A DNA stretch of 64,000 nt from a virus. The stretch spans positions 987 through 64,986 of IMG/VR virus record IMGVR_UViG_3300028840_005768; one strand, written 5' to 3'. Of this stretch, positions 3,178-48,708 are shown one piece after another (the first letter of the stretch is position 1; each line of letters starts with the position of its first letter). The translations under genes and the position numbers were made by a program. A model generated the notes under the pieces. The model did not search any database. It was not told the origin of the DNA and saw only the letters and a list, made by a program, of their open reading frames with translations.

Positions 3178-3274
3178 ATGCGCCTATCAGGCCCCCTAAT
3201 GGTGCTGGTGCTGGCCTGGGGCCCGGCGCTGAGCCCGGCTCCCGGTGTCCGGTCGCCCCACTCCGGCCGCTGGC

Positions 3275-3423
3275 CCGGGGACCCCGCTCGGGCCGCCGGG
3301 CGCCCCGCTCGGGCCGCCCCGCTCTGGCCGCCCCGCTCTGGCCGCCCCGCTCTGGCCGCCCCGCTCTGGCCGCCCCGCTCTGGCCGCCCCGCTCTGGCCG
3401 CCCCGCTCTGGCCGCCCCGCTCT
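3275..3423. repeat. GC-rich 14-bp tandem repeat (GGCCGCCCCGCTCT) x8 perfect at 3312-3423 plus degenerate upstream copies
   Basis: direct reading. Confidence 0.95.
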
Positions 3424-3442
3424 GAGGCCGGTCGCCCGGTCA

Positions 3443-3559
3443 TCTAACCGTGGCGTCGACTGGGGGAATCGGTTCTAACCGTGGATCCCGCCGGGTACGA
3501 TGGGGTCTTGATCTAACCGTGGATCCCGCCGGGCGCAATGGCGTCTTTGATCTAACCGG
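3443..3559. repeat. four iteron-like TCTAACCG(TGG) motifs at 3443, 3474, 3512, 3551; 22-bp TCTAACCGTGGATCCCGCCGGG present twice
   Basis: direct reading; spacing 31/38/39 nt; intergenic. Confidence 0.85.
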
Positions 3560-3735
3560 TGAGTTACACGGGCGGATTGGCGCCTGTCGTGCCACCTCGA
3601 GTCTGATTGATCTTGATGTCAGTCTGCTGGTGTCAGTCTGTTGGCGAGGGCGAGAAGGCCTAGAAATGAGTGACCCGGCAACCGAAGGCCGGTTACCGGG
3701 CCACGTCACTATGAATGACTGAATCTAAGTGCCAC

Positions 3736-4014
3736 TCAATGCGTCTGCTGAATCAAGTACTCAATTACTTCAAGCAGGGTGGACCACGGGAAGATTTGCT
3801 CTTGTAGCTGTTCTTGAGAGAGTTGCTGGAGATTCGCCGGCAATTGCCAGCGTTCTGTTTCAGTCAAGTCTCGCTGTTTTGTTAGACACAGGACTGCTAA
3901 TTCAGCGGCAACGGTTTTGCTACGCTGTGCGAGCGCGTACCGTAGCACGGGGAGACTGTGTTCATTGAGCTTGATGTTTCTGATCACTGTCTTATCCTGT
4001 GCATTTGACGACAT
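3736..4014 (-). CDS. hypothetical protein
   Basis: ORF track; overlaps end of capsid-like ORF. Confidence 0.5.
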   Translation of the reverse strand: MSSNAQDKTVIRNIKLNEHSLPVLRYALAQRSKTVAAELAVLCLTKQRDLTETERWQLPANLQQLSQEQLQEQIFPWSTLLEVIEYLIQQTH

Positions 4015-4838
4015 ATCGCGGGTTGTTAATGGTTGCTACTCCCTGCTCGCTCGCCTTGAAGCGCAGGAAGGCACCATTGTCCAATGCCGTGGGAACCACA
4101 GTGATTGGCCAAGCTTCTTTATAGCGAAAGGCCAAGCTGAAGTCACCGAGGAACCAACATTTCCTGGCGTAATCAACAGGTGCCCCAGAGGCAATCATTC
4201 GACGGTATGCCAATCGGCTTTCTACCACCTGAATGTTGGTATCTTGAAATAGACGGCACGCTAGGTGACGGTTTGCTGGCATTATGAGTGCGGTTGTGGC
4301 CACTCCTCTATGAAACAGTTGTTCAATAGCTGAGTCGACATTCTCCCAGTTCAGCAATTCATTACACGTTAGACAGTTTTCGGGTCTGATCACCCTGTCC
4401 AAGATGCGTTTCTCTTTGATCAATCCAAGTATCTCGCCTACTTCGGATGCTCGTTCCAGAATCTTCGCTGTGCGATCATATTGAACATCATCTACGGTAG
4501 CTGAAATGATCAGTCCGGCTGTGGTGTGCGGATTCCCATCCGTTTTCACCGGTACCCTGGTCACCAGTTTGGAAACGGTAAAGGCCGCTTGTGAGAAGGA
4601 CTCCTTGATCTTGATCTTGATCATCTCGTGAACGACGGCAGCAAAGCGCCCCCCACGTAACGGGTTTGGGAACATCTTGCAGTTCCATCCACGATGGTCC
4701 CATGAACACTTCGGCCAGGTCTCGAAGACTCAGGTCTTCTGGTTTGATTGTTCCAAAGCCGAGACTTTGAATGAGGTGTCTGACTACTTCAGCTGGACCA
4801 ATTCGTTTGCATCGTCGCTGTAGGTGGTGGTAGTTCAT
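3992..4838 (-). pseudogene. major-capsid-like gene (Mu gpT/HK97-like) split by a +1 frameshift at a G6 run (4649-4654); 281 aa if G5
   Basis: N-part ORF 4488..4838 (..IKPEDLSLRDLAEVF..) and C-part ORF 3992..4675 (..RASEVGEILGLIKEKRILD..WFLGDFSLAFRYKEAWPITV..RFKASEQG..NPRYVVK) join in frame if one G is removed; resemblance to planctomycete-phage capsids recalled, not searched. Confidence 0.6.
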
Positions 4839-5161
4839 GTCGTTAGCGCCTCGCGGATGCGTGTCAATTGTTCCAAGGTCATCTCTTTGAGACGGCGATA
4901 CTCACAGGCACCGGCGATCATGTGGCATAGCCTGTTGTGCCGTACCTGCTCTTGAAGCTGTTCGACTTCGCCAGCTACAGGTAAGCGGAGGTAGCCTCTG
5001 TTGAACCTGCTACTTCCGACCTGGAATCCATCTCGCTTGCGATATCGACCGTGACCGATGACGATTTGCGTCTTGGTGACTCGATCAACGGTAACGAGAT
5101 CCTTTTTGCGGTTCCAGGTACGGACCAGCTCGTCACCAGCTTGAACATTCTCAAGGCTCAT
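4835..5161 (-). CDS. hypothetical phage protein (SH3-like beta N-terminus)
   Basis: ORF track; ATGA-type overlaps with neighbours. Confidence 0.65.
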   Translation of the reverse strand: MSLENVQAGDELVRTWNRKKDLVTVDRVTKTQIVIGHGRYRKRDGFQVGSSRFNRGYLRLPVAGEVEQLQEQVRHNRLCHMIAGACEYRRLKEMTLEQLTRIREALTT

Positions 5162-10743: not shown

Positions 10744-10812
10744 GTTCTCTCCAGAGGAAAAAGTGGGAGCAGGTCGCCACAACCGGCTCCCATTGCAACA
10801 GGGACAGCCAAG

Positions 10813-11164
10813 TGGACCCGCCGGGAATTGAACCCGGGTCCTGCGACAGTTCCATGCCGCCGTCTACGTGCGTATTCGATCGATCGGATCTTGCTGGGTC
10901 AGGCTCGATCGACAAAGCGATTACCAGCCAGCCGGCGTAATCTTGGCCCCAGTCGTACCGGCATCGTACCGGGGTTGCTTGCCGAGGTGGTCGGCCGACC
11001 GGTTGCCCACCTCGGCGAGGGCTTCCGGCCGGAGCTGCTTACGCAGCCATTGCCAATTCGGTCTTGGCGTCTAAAGGAATGATCGGCTTTTAACGTGGCC
11101 CATGCCGATCAACCACGGCACGCAGGCAAGTCACTTTCCTGCCCAGTCGATTCCTGTCGGGCCC
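10813..11164 (-). ncRNA. ssrA: tmRNA (ssrA), 352 nt, tag (A)DAKTELAMAA*
   Basis: acceptor stem GGGCCCG/CGGGUCC with G3.U70, discriminator A, T-arm GGTTCAATTCCC, 5' GACAGGAATCGAC, tag ORF 11039-11071 after TTTA resume context; CCA not encoded. Confidence 0.95.
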
Positions 11165-14030: not shown

Positions 14031-15461
14031 TTATGCGGCAAAGGCCACGATGATGTCAATGAGGAACTGCTGGAAGTCGCGCGAGTTGTCGGTGGCGCCA
14101 GTGATGTAGTGGGCTACCTCTTCCAGGGCGGTCTTGAGCAGATACTTGCTCATACCACTGGCGATATCGTCGCGGATGTAGACGTGGTCGCCCTGTTGGA
14201 ATCCAAGCGTCTCGCTTTCGGCATGCATGATGTCACGGTAACAGGCGACCTGCGGAGGGATCTTGCCCTGCGTCATTTTGAGATTCTCGATCCAGCCCCA
14301 GACCGTCGCCACTGCCTGGTTGGCTGCATCGGTTGCCGGGAGGATCTCTTTGCCGTTCTTCTCGTTTTCGCTCAAAAGTCGGTCCGCGGTTTTGATTCCC
14401 GTCTGAGTGGCACCGACAATCCATGCGCTTGGCTTGATGGATTGCGTCTCGTACCCTTTGCGGGCGACCAGCTCCGCCTGTTTGACGGAGGAGTCACATA
14501 GGACGGCGTCACCGGCCGCCTCCTTCCAGGCCCCTTGCCACGCCGCTTGTTTCTCTTCGGATGGCTGTTGCCATGAGGGGCAGAGGTAATAGGGATCGAG
14601 CCCCGACTCGAATGTCGTCTCGTCATTGAGTAGGCTGCTGAACACGGTCGCCAGAGTCGTGGCGTCAGCGGCCGAGATCAAGCGCGCGCACGCTGCTCGA
14701 ATCGTGTACTCGCTGCTGTTGCGTGATTCGTCGATCTCCAATTCGTGCGGCCTGAAGTTGTAGTCGAAGAGGCTCGGGTCCTTGGTTTCGGCGATCTCTC
14801 GCACAAAGACGCCACAGCGGTACACCATCGGCGTCAGACCATTGCCGAGGTTACGGTCAGCCTTGTGCAGGATCGACTTGTGAACCTGCGAGGGGTCATG
14901 GGAGAAGTGCAGGAACCGGCGAGGCAGCTCCCCATAGTAGCGCTGCACTTCCTGGCTCAATTCGATGAAGATTCGCGTGTAGTCATCTTTCGCTCGACGA
15001 CGGCTTTCGTCGACCACGGTGACGGTGAGCCGGTCTGCATCCTTGGCGGCAACGAAATCGCCTTCCTGGCGGATGGTACGATCGATGGCGTTGGCGATGA
15101 ATTCGCGCAATCCCATGCCGAGATCCGTCCAGTCAATCGACCCGAAATCGAGGCACCAGCCCAGGTCGAGTAGCTTGGTCGACGTGCCACCCATCTGACA
15201 CATGACCTTTCGCACGCGCTTCTCGGTGAGACCGTCATTGACGGTTTCGTCTTTGGTGAAGAATTCCAGGCGGGTCCGGCCGCAGTAGATGCACACCTTC
15301 AACCCGGCACGAAGCAGTATGTTGATCGCATGCTTCGCGCCGGAGCCGAATTGACCGCTCGTGCCGGCCACGCCACAACCACGCGTGGTCGACATGCCGA
15401 GCAGGGTGTAGCCTTCAACGGGGGCAACGCCGGGGTTTTGAATCATCAAGTACTGCATCAA
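14031..15461 (-). CDS. GHKL-type ATPase (motif order permuted) with C-terminal zincin-like EExxH
   Basis: LMIQNPG (G1), GQFGSG (G2), then REFIANAID (N-box), TRIFI; ALEEVAH near C-terminus. Confidence 0.65.
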   Translation of the reverse strand: MMQYLMIQNPGVAPVEGYTLLGMSTTRGCGVAGTSGQFGSGAKHAINILLRAGLKVCIYCGRTRLEFFTKDETVNDGLTEKRVRKVMCQMGGTSTKLLDLGWCLDFGSIDWTDLGMGLREFIANAIDRTIRQEGDFVAAKDADRLTVTVVDESRRRAKDDYTRIFIELSQEVQRYYGELPRRFLHFSHDPSQVHKSILHKADRNLGNGLTPMVYRCGVFVREIAETKDPSLFDYNFRPHELEIDESRNSSEYTIRAACARLISAADATTLATVFSSLLNDETTFESGLDPYYLCPSWQQPSEEKQAAWQGAWKEAAGDAVLCDSSVKQAELVARKGYETQSIKPSAWIVGATQTGIKTADRLLSENEKNGKEILPATDAANQAVATVWGWIENLKMTQGKIPPQVACYRDIMHAESETLGFQQGDHVYIRDDIASGMSKYLLKTALEEVAHYITGATDNSRDFQQFLIDIIVAFAA

Positions 15462-15682
15462 GCCCTCACAAGTTGGTGGAGTCCGCCTCGGTCAAGCCAA
15501 GAGTCGATCAGGGTGGTAAAGTGTTTGGCGACCGTCTTCCGACCGTGCTTTCGACGAAGACCGTAGTAGGGATTCCCGCGCATCCAAGAGATGAAGGCGA
15601 CCCGGTATTCCTGGCCTGATTCCAGGCCGGGGATTTGGGGAAAGCCGATGACACGAAATTTCTGGCCTTCTCGGAGTTTCAT
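15458..15682 (-). CDS. hypothetical protein
   Basis: ORF track, start MKLREG. Confidence 0.5.
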   Translation of the reverse strand: MKLREGQKFRVIGFPQIPGLESGQEYRVAFISWMRGNPYYGLRRKHGRKTVAKHFTTLIDSWLDRGGLHQLVRA

Positions 15683-16119
15683 GCTGCCAGCTCCGCTTGG
15701 AGTTCCTGCCACTCGGCGTGCCGTTGGCTGCTGTCGAAGTCGATGTGCGTCTCGCTGCCGTCGTAGTTCCACTGGTCTGCCATCCGTCCCAACGTCTTGA
15801 GCAGTTCGGCCGCTTCCGGCATTAAACGCGGTGTCTCCTCCTGCTCCATCATCAGCCGGCAGAATCGATCGGTTCCCCGCGCATCGTTGATTTCGTGCTC
15901 CAGCTCCCAGTACCGTCGATTGTGGATGGGGTGCGGGTAGTCGCGGATGATGATGTTCAGGGACTGGCCGCCGGAGTAACGCTCAATGCGGACGCTGTAT
16001 CGGCAGGCCGGTAGCTGATCGGCGGCGACTGCGGCCTTGATCTCGGCACGCAACCGCTTGGCGATCTTGGCAATGTCCAGGCCTCTTTCGTACTTGTCGC
16101 TGTAGGTGATCTCGTACAT
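15679..16119 (-). CDS. LPD29-like (large polyvalent protein-associated) domain protein
   Basis: IAK.LRAEIK..YSVR...YSGGQSLNI; GGAGG SD. Confidence 0.6.
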   Translation of the reverse strand: MYEITYSDKYERGLDIAKIAKRLRAEIKAAVAADQLPACRYSVRIERYSGGQSLNIIIRDYPHPIHNRRYWELEHEINDARGTDRFCRLMMEQEETPRLMPEAAELLKTLGRMADQWNYDGSETHIDFDSSQRHAEWQELQAELAA

Positions 16120-16135
16120 GCTCGCCTCCTAATCA

Positions 16136-16164
16136 ATTATAGGTTGCTAGCAACGTAATGTCAA
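16136..16164 (-). promoter_or_regulatory. consensus sigma70 promoter TTGACA-17-TATAAT
   Basis: tgtcaa 16159-64, attata 16136-41. Confidence 0.9.
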
Positions 16165-16165
16165 A

Positions 16166-16810
16166 TCACAAACGACAAGAACCCGGTAGAAACGGGTTGT
16201 AGACCAGTGGATTGAGGGCTCGCTGTTTCATGCTGGCGACTGCATCGGTGAGACTGAGGGTCCGCACCATGGCATCAAACATCCATGGCTCGCAGTCAGC
16301 CCATAGCTCGAAGTCGGCGTGATCAACGCTGAATAGACTGGCAGAGTGGCGCTCGTTGACCGTGCGGACGTGGGCTGTAAAGCCGAGTACCTCCAGCCGA
16401 TCGACCAGCGGCAGCAGCTCGCCGCGCGCATACTTCTTGGCGCCATATCCCTGACTGCTGTAAGTGTGGGAGGAGGCGATCTTCAGCCGGTGCATGCAGC
16501 CATCTGGCTTGAACTCCACCTCAGGCGCCAGTACATCAAGCAAGTTTTCACGGCGTATTTGTAGATTTCCTAACTCGGCATCTAATTGCAGGATTTCCTG
16601 GCCGAGTGGACTATTGAGAATGTCATTTCGAATCTCGGTCGCCACTTCTTCAGGAAGTGGATTGAAGATTGTTCGAGCTTGGGGCTGACGTTTCTTCTGT
16701 CCGGCGTAAACACGCTCGTCATACTGTGCTTGTGCCTGCTCGCGTAGAGCTTGCAAGTTGGCTCGCATGTCATTATATGACGTTTGATAGATGGCTTGGT
16801 AGGTACTCAT
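16166..16810 (-). CDS. hypothetical coiled-coil protein
   Basis: ORF track, start MSTYQA. Confidence 0.55.
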   Translation of the reverse strand: MSTYQAIYQTSYNDMRANLQALREQAQAQYDERVYAGQKKRQPQARTIFNPLPEEVATEIRNDILNSPLGQEILQLDAELGNLQIRRENLLDVLAPEVEFKPDGCMHRLKIASSHTYSSQGYGAKKYARGELLPLVDRLEVLGFTAHVRTVNERHSASLFSVDHADFELWADCEPWMFDAMVRTLSLTDAVASMKQRALNPLVYNPFLPGSCRL

Positions 16811-17313
16811 GCAGGAAGCCCCTTCAGTCGTCTGTTCAACGTGTCCCATTGGTCGATGCCGATCAAACCCAAGTCATGAACACGTTCGAGCCAGTCTTCC
16901 AGAAGTGTCACCATGCCTTCAATCTCACCACTCCGCACCTGGAGCTGCCGGTCGACGACCTGCTGCAGAAACAAGGTGTTTGCTTCGCGACTGATAACGT
17001 CAAAGCGAAGGCCGACGCGGTACATGGTCTCCCCGTCGCCTTCATCTGTGGAGAGGTTGCAGTGATCTCTGGGGTCATCGGTGAAGAAACAGCCCAACTC
17101 GCCGAGCTTGTGGTGCAGGTCGTCCAATGCGCTTTCGGCGTCGGTCCCGACGCCTATGATCGCCATTTGGAAAATGACGGGTTCAATGGTCGCCTCTTGG
17201 CAGACACCGAAGTCGACAATCTGGAAGTCATGAATCGGAATCATAGGCTTCAATCTCTTTGTGACGTTGACGGCAGGCTTCCCATGCTGTGTCATCATCA
17301 ACGTCAAAGACAT
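16807..17313 (-). CDS. hypothetical protein
   Basis: ORF track. Confidence 0.5.
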   Translation of the reverse strand: MSLTLMMTQHGKPAVNVTKRLKPMIPIHDFQIVDFGVCQEATIEPVIFQMAIIGVGTDAESALDDLHHKLGELGCFFTDDPRDHCNLSTDEGDGETMYRVGLRFDVISREANTLFLQQVVDRQLQVRSGEIEGMVTLLEDWLERVHDLGLIGIDQWDTLNRRLKGLPA

Positions 17314-17455
17314 GCATCATCCATTCCTGAGCAACAGCAAAGTCAAATGCTGCTGCCGTCTCTTCGTGGGTGGATTGCGTCGTCCACACCATGCGAACGA
17401 TCTTGACCCCTTGCCGTTGCGTCAGGAAGATTTGTCTCGGGACGTGTTGACTCAT
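17228..17455 (-). CDS. hypothetical protein (leaderless)
   Basis: ATG 9 nt after -10 box. Confidence 0.55.
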   Translation of the reverse strand: MSQHVPRQIFLTQRQGVKIVRMVWTTQSTHEETAAAFDFAVAQEWMMHVFDVDDDTAWEACRQRHKEIEAYDSDS

Positions 17456-17464
17456 ACTATTTCA

Positions 17465-17493
17465 AGTATAGGTTGCTGGTGGCGTTATGTCAA
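17465..17493 (-). promoter_or_regulatory. early sigma70 promoter TTGACA-17-TATACT
   Basis: tgtcaa 17488-93, agtata 17465-70. Confidence 0.9.
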
Positions 17494-17675
17494 GCAGACT
17501 CGTCGATGCTCCACTCATTTGATTGGAATGCGTGCCAGCCGTGCCCGAGCCCGGTGGCCACATCATCAAATTGAGCGAGAATCTCTGGAGCATCGGAGAC
17601 CAGGAGCAATGCTGTCTTTCCCCGCAGTTCCAGACGACCACCAATGTAGGTCCCACGCTTCATTTTGATTGGCAT
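17490..17675 (-). CDS. small hypothetical protein
   Basis: ORF track; GGAG SD. Confidence 0.5.
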   Translation of the reverse strand: MPIKMKRGTYIGGRLELRGKTALLLVSDAPEILAQFDDVATGLGHGWHAFQSNEWSIDESA

Positions 17676-17817
17676 TTATTCTCTCCTGTGGTGCATAACC
17701 GGATCCCGTCCCCCGGGGGAAAGTCAGATCGGCGTCAGTCGCCGTGCGTACTTGCCGTCGATCTCGAAGCCGCTTCTCTCCAGTACTCTGAACCCGATCT
17801 CCACGTTGTCGAAGAAG

Positions 17818-18141
17818 TTACGCATTGCCGCTACTCCCTAGCTGGGTGAACACTTGAATCAGCCCATTCAGATGCATCATGCGTGTGCCGAACTTGTCGA
17901 TGAAGTCGTGAACCAGCCAGGGGTTCTCGCAGTCGTCCATTTCCTCCGCCGTGTCGGCGACCTCCTCCAGAAGGCTCTGCTGCATCTGGCCGAGGGCTTT
18001 GACCACGCCGGCACACCGCTTGGACAGTTGCGGGTTGGCCTTCTTCCATTGTTCCTGCTGCTGTCGCCCGATCATCTTCGCCAGCAGCTCATTCTGCTGT
18101 TCTAGCGCGGCAAGGATCGCTTTCAGAAGTGCTTCAGGCAT
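17818..18141 (-). CDS. helical protein resembling a Planctomycetota-conserved hypothetical
   Basis: WKKANPQL..FIDKFG.R..HLNGL.QV..QL; family recalled, not searched. Confidence 0.6.
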   Translation of the reverse strand: MPEALLKAILAALEQQNELLAKMIGRQQQEQWKKANPQLSKRCAGVVKALGQMQQSLLEEVADTAEEMDDCENPWLVHDFIDKFGTRMMHLNGLIQVFTQLGSSGNA

Positions 18142-47070: not shown

Positions 47071-47085
47071 ACACTGCTCCAAAAG

Positions 47086-47158
47086 AGCCGCCGATAGGAA
47101 TCGAACCTACAACCTGCTGATTACAAATCAGCTGCTCTGCCGGTTGAGCTACAGCGGC
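47086..47158 (-). tRNA. tRNA-Thr(TGT)
   Basis: GCCGCTG/CGGCGGC acceptor, TAGCTCA D-arm, CTGAT-ttTGTaa-ATCAG, GGTTCGATTCC; no encoded CCA. Confidence 0.95.
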
Positions 47159-48621: not shown

Positions 48622-48635
48622 CGTTATCCTCCAAG

Positions 48636-48708
48636 CTGTGGCGGCAGGGTTCGAACCTGCGACCTACGGATTAACAATCCGGCGCTCTACCGGCTGAGCT
48701 ACGCCACA
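48636..48708 (-). tRNA. tRNA-Asn(GTT)
   Basis: TGTGGCG/CGCCACA acceptor plus discriminator G, CGGA-ttGTTaa-TCCG, GGTTCGAACCC. Confidence 0.95.

Follow-up and report, generated by a model that had tools for sequence, protein, structure and literature searches.

Capsid proteins of tailed phages are commonly treated as dedicated shell builders. In known HK97-type shells, the E-loop and the like loops reach over to neighbouring subunits, and the solved capsid and encapsulin shells are known to have an E-loop hairpin. Captured and altered capsid genes are exemplified by mouse Fv1 and the sheep enJS56A1 Gag, the products of which are credited with hindering related capsids at assembly or uncoating. 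In the literature searched, no report was found of a truncated capsid protein used by a phage. The locus considered here is a split gene at 3992-4838, minus strand, of a 64,000-nucleotide stretch of virus DNA (hereafter the window, i.e. the whole stretch analysed), which corresponds to bases 987-64986 of the 106,101-base virus record IMGVR_UViG_3300028840_005768 of IMG/VR, rated complete by CheckV; the carrier is a 106-kb phage of planctomycete-type hosts. Read through its frameshift, this gene encodes a compact derivative, hereafter a mini capsid protein, of an HK97-fold major capsid protein of the family Phage_capsid_4.

The main new fact is the existence of intact relatives with the same loss of the E-loop, together with that of a parent element from which the family comes. 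The leading explanation, which is put forward tentatively, is that of a selected family of mini capsid proteins devoid of E-loop and most likely poisoning the assembly of related capsids, the copy at hand being broken by one extra G.

The split gene and its product

The locus consists of two overlapping open reading frames (ORFs) of the minus strand that meet at a run of six G (G6). Its parts are as follows, in window coordinates and with lengths in codons or amino acids (aa):

3992..4838, minus: whole mini capsid-protein gene, 281 codons plus stop when read through the frameshift (protein P0001)
4488..4838, minus: ORF of 116 aa, i.e. 63 native residues then 53 out-of-frame residues
3992..4675, minus: ORF of 227 aa (P0002) from an internal ATG, the first 9 residues being out of frame
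4650..4838, minus: N-terminal part, 63 codons in the original frame, carrying the family-invariant S-x-R-x-L-A-E motif
4649..4654, minus (C6 on the plus strand): G6 run, one G in excess of the family frame
3992..4648, minus: C-terminal part, 218 codons plus stop in the +1 frame, encoding the spine helix along with the P- and A-domain cores

The initial annotation, made from the letters alone, had proposed that both ORFs would join into a 281-aa frame if the run were G5, and this is borne out by translation as well as by the homology of each half. Skipping one base at 4649-4654 opens a frame of 281 aa with the terminus ..VVKCTG followed by the stop. The N-terminal part alone is similar to the beginning of another mini protein (43% over 53 aa, E 1e-8) and the C-terminal part alone finds matches at E 1e-30 to 1e-56; since each half has homologues of its own, the join is real and not due to chance. 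The 227-aa P0002 is the sole product recorded by gene callers for this gene.

A search with P0001 gives alignments covering 100% of the query with 118 proteins of ~386 aa (best E 1.9e-51), and one relative of that size bears the NCBI name 'phage major capsid protein'. The full-length relatives P0005, P0058, and P0003 carry PF25209 (Phage_capsid_4) at 57-59 bits vs. a cut-off of 27, and this end-to-end alignment establishes the derivation from a capsid protein that had been recognised from the sequence at the outset. Pfam and PHROGs gave no usable family match for either ORF piece or for P0001; among the intact mini proteins presented below, precomputed PF25209 matches exist for P0120, P0121, and P0122, a weak one for P0124 and none for P0127. 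The label of Mu gpT-like protein that had first been given pointed to the right neighbourhood of capsid proteins but to the wrong family: Mu-like gpT (PF10124) is related to PF25209 by co-occurrence in the Atlas, where 10-36% of the members of two PF25209 clusters also carry it, but no PF10124 match at E <=1 was obtained for P0001, P0005, P0058, or P0003.

Regarding the fold, the structure model of P0001 (pLDDT 75, pTM 0.72) was compared with the PDB in a wide structure search, in which the best 50 chains are all HK97-fold capsids or encapsulins (Z 6.2-9.4, 160-187 residues aligned), in line with the HK97-fold match that the initial annotation expected of the joined protein. The model of the full-length P0005 (pLDDT 70) reaches Z >=8 with 79 chains, the 50 listed being all capsids or encapsulins at Z 10.2-13.1. 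Foldseek vs. PDB was less clear than this wide search and returned only weak rows, mostly HK97-fold, with a best E of 0.02; by sequence, a profile built from the full-length family had no match among the PDB chains.

The product was rightly described as shortened, but by about eight separate in-frame gaps relative to the full-length capsid proteins instead of the single central deletion first envisaged. The main missing segments are, in P0005 numbering:

62-73: linker
118-150: E-loop hairpin, with its two strands
204-223: hairpin following the spine helix
249-259 and 283-302: A-domain
357-362

The frameshift maps to P0005 79/80. Over P0005 118-150, i.e. the E-loop hairpin, occupancy is 0.03 in the mini protein vs. 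1.0 in every full-length member listed, namely those covering both E-loop flanks; in place of the E-loop, residues 94-106 of P0001 form a short turn with a pLDDT <50. Across the mini family, the N-terminal helices, the spine helix, and the P- and A-domain cores are retained, the whole E-loop hairpin is always lost, and the post-spine hairpin and the loops of the A- and P-domains are lost to varying degrees, all in frame.

The mini capsid-protein family and its parent element

A phmmer search of 1.84 billion representatives retrieved five intact relatives of 264-337 aa, namely P0120, P0121, P0122, P0124, and P0127. All five lack the E-loop at the same place as well as the 283-302 hairpin, further loops being gone in most of them; as every listed full-length member has the E-loop and these segments, the compact form is derived. 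In the maximum-likelihood tree, the six mini proteins form one clade (SH-aLRT 98), which is sister to P0003 and P0005 (support 90) and nested in a tight group of host-element capsid proteins. Their terminal branches measure 0.5-1.5 vs. 0.05-0.13 in the full-length neighbours, and from branch lengths the mini proteins evolve 5-15 times faster than the parent capsid proteins.

Near-identical contigs differ by 0-3 bases in 11-15 kb and the other family members are saturated at ~45% protein identity; selection was judged by frame-integrity and conservation tests. The six mini proteins share ~45% pairwise identity, yet 43 columns are invariant. In neutral simulations run to that divergence, the open frame was kept in 0 of 200, and the probability of nine or more of ten indels being in frame is 3.6e-4. 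Where columns are variable, P0001 has an identity of 0.15 to the family consensus, a value that climbs to 0.75 where columns are conserved at >=95%. Because five phage-like contigs keep the same stripped-down form intact, the mini capsid proteins are a selected protein family and not junk. This family was not found described in these searches. No closer relative of P0001 was found in IMG/VR or among the metagenome contigs of JGI, and with the mini alignment run against IMG/VR and species genomes, the matches listed are full-length capsid genes or cut fragments, with no further mini protein.

The full-length relatives belong to a head-only module, found in host genomes and not in the window (e.g. 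L007:2700-13515, L008:650-14100, and L014-L093), with the order ParB-like protein, phrog_11143 protein, small and large terminase subunits (TerS and TerL), lambda-type portal, protease, decoration protein, capsid protein, a variable stretch, and three small genes. Synteny of the ParB-like, TerS, TerL, portal, protease, decoration, and capsid genes, in that order, is found in 42 loci, and no tape measure, tail gene or integrase was seen in the module loci. Relatives of this element occur in 283 species-representative genomes, the titles of which are almost all Pirellulales, with Aeoliella, Botrimarina, Bythopirellula, Lacipirellula, and Thermoguttaceae among the genera or groups named. In five loci of different genera, the module is followed by the same host genes, namely two radical-SAM genes and EF-P. 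The element measures ~14 kb, and its IMG/VR records mostly 12-16 kb. It looks like a conserved or domesticated, head-only entity, akin to a gene transfer agent (GTA) or to a capsid-forming phage-inducible chromosomal island (cf-PICI); in the literature searched, there was no description of it, nor of any GTA-like element in planctomycetes. Judging from alignment and tree, the mini family descends from the capsid protein of this Pirellulales element. The planctomycete prophages to which the similar proteins had first been assigned are right as to the planctomycetes but not as to the prophages, the relatives being those of a small head-only element.

The carrier of the window does not depend on this lineage for its own shell, which involves a separate module:

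81.5-89.2 kb of the genome: the phage's own head module, with P22-type coat, scaffold, portal, and gpA-type terminase (TerL)

The coat protein is of the P22 type (PF11651, E 1e-26; phrog_283, E 1e-57), and the mini gene lies at 5.0-5.8 kb of the genome, outside any head module, ~76 kb from these head genes along the record and ~28 kb across its joined ends. The joining of the ends comes from the independent ENA contig L003, which at 14937-17909 runs from the record start into its end (vs. genome 131-734 and 103603-105982); this makes the genome circular or circularly permuted, with a complete record. No second relative of P0001 exists in the 106-kb genome. In the window, the neighbours of the mini gene are an HNH endonuclease, a tyrosine recombinase (integrase), a topoisomerase-like protein, and unknowns. 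The initial description of an orphan gene placed among early genes and far from the structural module is upheld on both counts. The immediate surroundings are those of a leftward operon:

4835..5161, minus: gene of 108 aa lying directly upstream in the same operon; weak ProQ C-terminal-like match (PF24203, E 3e-4, below cut-off); phrog_9662
3736..4014, minus: downstream gene of 92 aa without a family match, its first 23 bases being shared with the end of the mini gene
3670..3704, minus: terminator-like hairpin of 16 pairs, closing the operon after one more small gene

The start codon ATG of the mini gene (4838-4836) and the TGA that ends the upstream gene share bases as ATGA, a start/stop overlap that is the usual mark of a coupled operon gene. 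Further along, a proline/arginine-rich tandem repeat (..PRSGRPALAAPLW..) lies at window 3245-3450, where the ENA contig L003 differs by 84 bases in length from the window and the JGI contig L004. The neighbours of the five relatives are as follows:

P0127 (L009): HicB-like protein, N6/N4 methylase, NUMOD4 (HNH) nuclease
P0120 (L010): integrase, CsrA, RecT, then host genes
P0122 (L011): CsrA
P0121 (L012): faint DnaB match
P0124 (L013): CsrA, ERF, YqaJ

No portal, terminase or other structural neighbour was seen at any of these five loci. The only neighbour common to the window and the relatives is a 476-aa protein shared with L009; as neighbours are otherwise not shared, the gene moves as a single unit. 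This 476-aa protein (phrog_8203) is encoded at window 14031-15461, minus strand, and its 43%-identical homologue at L009:2059-3492 stands two genes upstream of the mini gene. Besides, three of the five related contigs carry a small gene of the CsrA family at 1-5 kb from the mini gene (L010:5227-5394, L011:1416-1637, and L013:3252-3422), and RNA-binding regulators, i.e. CsrA and the ProQ-like upstream gene in the window, may travel with the mini gene. General family scans of the window and of the relatives' loci, none of which was aimed at encapsulin cargo, noted no cargo-type neighbour. Elsewhere in the window, the phage encodes a tmRNA at 10812-11164, minus strand, with the tag peptide AKTELAMAA (ARAGORN), as well as tRNA-Thr(TGT) and tRNA-Asn(GTT) at 47085-47158 and 48635-48708, both on the minus strand.

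The extra G in this copy

The window and the ENA, JGI, and Logan contigs are 100% identical over 911 bases including the G6 run, and differ elsewhere by 2-3 bases and by an 84-base repeat length, from which it follows that they are not copies of one assembly. The tract length is thus G6 in four of four assemblies, contigs being consensus sequences that can hide minor variants. Five DNA runs in four studies hold the stretch, two of these runs being possibly the window's own source; no RNA run is among those listed, which has no bearing on expression. The six contigs carrying the gene all give the same 227-aa product, and no 281-aa product, as a G5 would give, is present in a collection of 15 billion proteins. 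As for the remainder of the gene, no stop interrupts the 281 codons of the joined frame, and of the 46 positions that do not vary among the other five mini proteins, P0001 retains 43, the range among intact members being 73-98%; the break is therefore recent, or bypassed. The neutral time elapsed since the break is estimated at less than ~0.085 substitutions per site.

Regarding the site itself, G/C runs of at least six bases are strongly avoided in the 106-kb genome (4 observed vs. ~42 expected under a first-order Markov model), the frameshift site being one of the 4, and this avoidance fits a slip at a former G5. A slippery site is present, as in TGG-GGG-GCG the GGG can re-pair with GGG one base on (+1). 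No significant local RNA fold was found near the G6 site (z = -0.68), and the five relatives, all plain single ORFs, have no G run at this place.

The explanation of the frameshift that fares best, with about an even chance of being right, is a recently dead copy: the family would be functional elsewhere, a G5-to-G6 slip having killed the gene here with decay still pending. It agrees with a broken frame that cuts the invariant N-terminal motif off from the core, with the 227-aa product being the only one on record, with the lack of a stimulatory RNA fold near the site, and with the avoidance of G/C runs, which fits a mutational accident. It agrees less well with the absence of a second lesion, be it a stop or a wider loss of invariant positions, and with the fixation of the allele in samples from at least three sources. 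At the family level, a recent death is compatible with the explanation by a selected, E-loop-less family. Alternatively, the gene may be recoded or switchable, G6 acting as a +1 slippage site or a slipped-strand switch so that the full-length protein is made sometimes or at a low level; the intact remainder of the gene and the perfect re-pairing of a glycine tRNA on GGG one base on, in T-GG-GGG-G, speak for it, but the relatives are single ORFs devoid of such a run, local RNA structure is not significant, the run length is invariant among the assemblies compared (within the resolution of consensus contigs), and six bases are short for a contingency tract, all of which makes this an improbable solution.

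Two further explanations were raised in the initial annotation and fare much worse. Homopolymers are error-prone in some chemistries and the break falls exactly in the run, as would be the case for a sequencing or assembly error at a true G5 in an intact gene. However, the identity of four contigs that are not copies of each other, the five DNA holders in four studies, and the lack of any G5-type 281-aa product leave very little room for it: sequencing error is unlikely because G6 is found in all assemblies compared with no G5 product on record. The broken frame, the lack of a Pfam match for P0001, and the change of 25% of the near-invariant family residues could likewise evoke an old neutral relic of a capsid gene, acquired by recombination and never functional in phages. 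This is already contradicted, and hardly credible, given five intact relatives with the same deletions and six members in a single clade, large indels that are all in frame, neutral simulations that never keep the frame open, and a gradient of conservation across columns. A plain, long-decayed pseudogene is thus rejected at the family level, on the grounds of intact relatives, a single clade, and frame integrity.

Proposed function and comparison with known systems

With its own P22-type coat gene, the phage would not use the mini product as a shell builder. Instead, the mini protein would bind the full-length capsid protein made by the resident element or by related phages, or else partners of that protein, and act as a chain-terminating subunit, presenting the surfaces that accept the E-loop of a neighbour with no E-loop to donate, upon which the capsomers or procapsids of the competitor would fail. 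In this strain, the lesion would be very recent, or the gene would work in two pieces or by rare slippage. Poisoning is judged to fit best with a capsid lineage that is unused by the phage but present in nearly all its likely hosts, with the early location of the gene and with its fast evolution. A bolder form of the same proposal, which is possible but doubtful, sees a weaponised capsid gene, made early to cap and poison the capsomers of the head-only element harboured by nearly all hosts, as a bacterial counterpart of Fv1 and enJS56A1, the G6 run marking a strain that has just lost its weapon or can toggle it.

Several points weigh against the poisoning of related capsids by a selected family. 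The copy is frameshifted in every assembly seen and the phage may have no working product, because the break parts the invariant S-x-R-x-L-A-E motif from the core. The family is known from six members only, which long branches could pull together in the tree. The 'phage early region' of the relatives is based on few neighbouring genes, as four of the five are on contigs of 4-10 kb, and a satellite-type role is possible since P0120 sits at the edge of an integrated element beside host genes. The structure models lean towards the HK97 fold because the alignment used is dominated by full-length capsid proteins. A complex prediction of P0120 with the full-length P0005 (score 0.13, mark 0.32) speaks neither for nor against the proposed poisoning.

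Other functions can be envisaged for a protein that keeps the core of the fold and has lost the assembly loops. It could be a decoy or inhibitor of a host immune sensor for HK97-fold capsids, an early look-alike that occupies the sensor without triggering it, in agreement with its place among early genes, with the retained core devoid of assembly loops and with a fast evolution befitting a conflict gene; bacterial sensors of conserved phage structural proteins are described (PMC12803255). This option is nonetheless improbable: it fits less well because the coat mimicked, derived from a lambda-order Phage_capsid_4 protein, is not the phage's own P22-type coat, which a decoy should resemble, and no sensor gene is known for these hosts. 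Still less probable is a form of capsid piracy or remodelling, in which the mini protein would redirect or borrow the shells of the head-only element or of a helper without poisoning them. The situation of P0120 in a small integrated element with integrase, CsrA, and RecT, where no structural genes were seen, and a head-only parent of about 13-16 kb in IMG/VR records would suit it, but the window comes from a complete 106-kb phage that has head genes of its own, and the size-redirecting proteins described so far are not known to derive from capsid proteins. The poisoning of related capsids hence stays ahead of these two alternatives.

A conserved, fast-evolving, E-loop-less derivative, encoded outside the head module by phages with a different coat protein, would be a case of the HK97 fold being put to use beyond the shell itself, probably in conflict. 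If the bolder form of the proposal is true, it would also be the first capsid-derived counter-measure in the conflict of phages with satellites. Besides, the locus points to a head-only element of phage origin that hundreds of Pirellulales species possess.

Among known systems, the closest is the capsid protein of the Pirellulales element itself (PF25209; P0005 from Planctomycetes bacterium MalM25 and P0058 from Aeoliella sp. SH292), to which P0001 is 38% identical by BLAST along its entire length and 50-53% when aligned columns are counted. Both share the N-terminal helices, the spine helix, and the C-terminal ..RFKASE.G....PRYVVKCTG, and the mini clade branches from inside that group. P0001 differs in being ~105 residues shorter, with no E-loop and with trimmed A- and P-loops, and the mini gene differs in its place outside the head module, its 5-15 times faster evolution and, for this copy, its frameshift. 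As for HK97-fold shells at large, the P0001 model superposes on encapsulins 9i8e (Z 9.4) and 2e0z (Z 9.2), on HK97 1ohg (Z 7.7), and on lambda 7sj5 (Z 7.2); the E-loop hairpin is a known feature of HK97 gp5, lambda gpE, and the encapsulins, whereas the mini proteins have a short low-confidence turn instead.

The likeness to Fv1 and enJS56A1 lies in a captured, altered capsid gene undergoing rapid evolution, the interference with related capsids being only inferred for the mini protein. These are host genes derived from retroviruses, the function of which has been tested, whereas the mini gene is carried by a phage and comes from a bacterial head-only element, its function being putative. With P4 Sid, CpmA/CpmB of Staphylococcus aureus pathogenicity islands (SaPI), TcaP of PLE, and the cf-PICIs, the common ground is a proposed conflict in which a phage and a small resident element contend over the assembly of capsids. 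The Pirellulales element is, like the cf-PICIs, head-only and of 13-16 kb, and the P0005 model fits the capsid 9gyi of a cf-PICI with Z 12.6; it departs from them in showing no integrase and in having the same chromosomal neighbours in five loci. Lastly, Sid, CpmA, CpmB, and TcaP are scaffolds encoded by the satellite, whereas the mini protein is a capsid derivative encoded by the phage.

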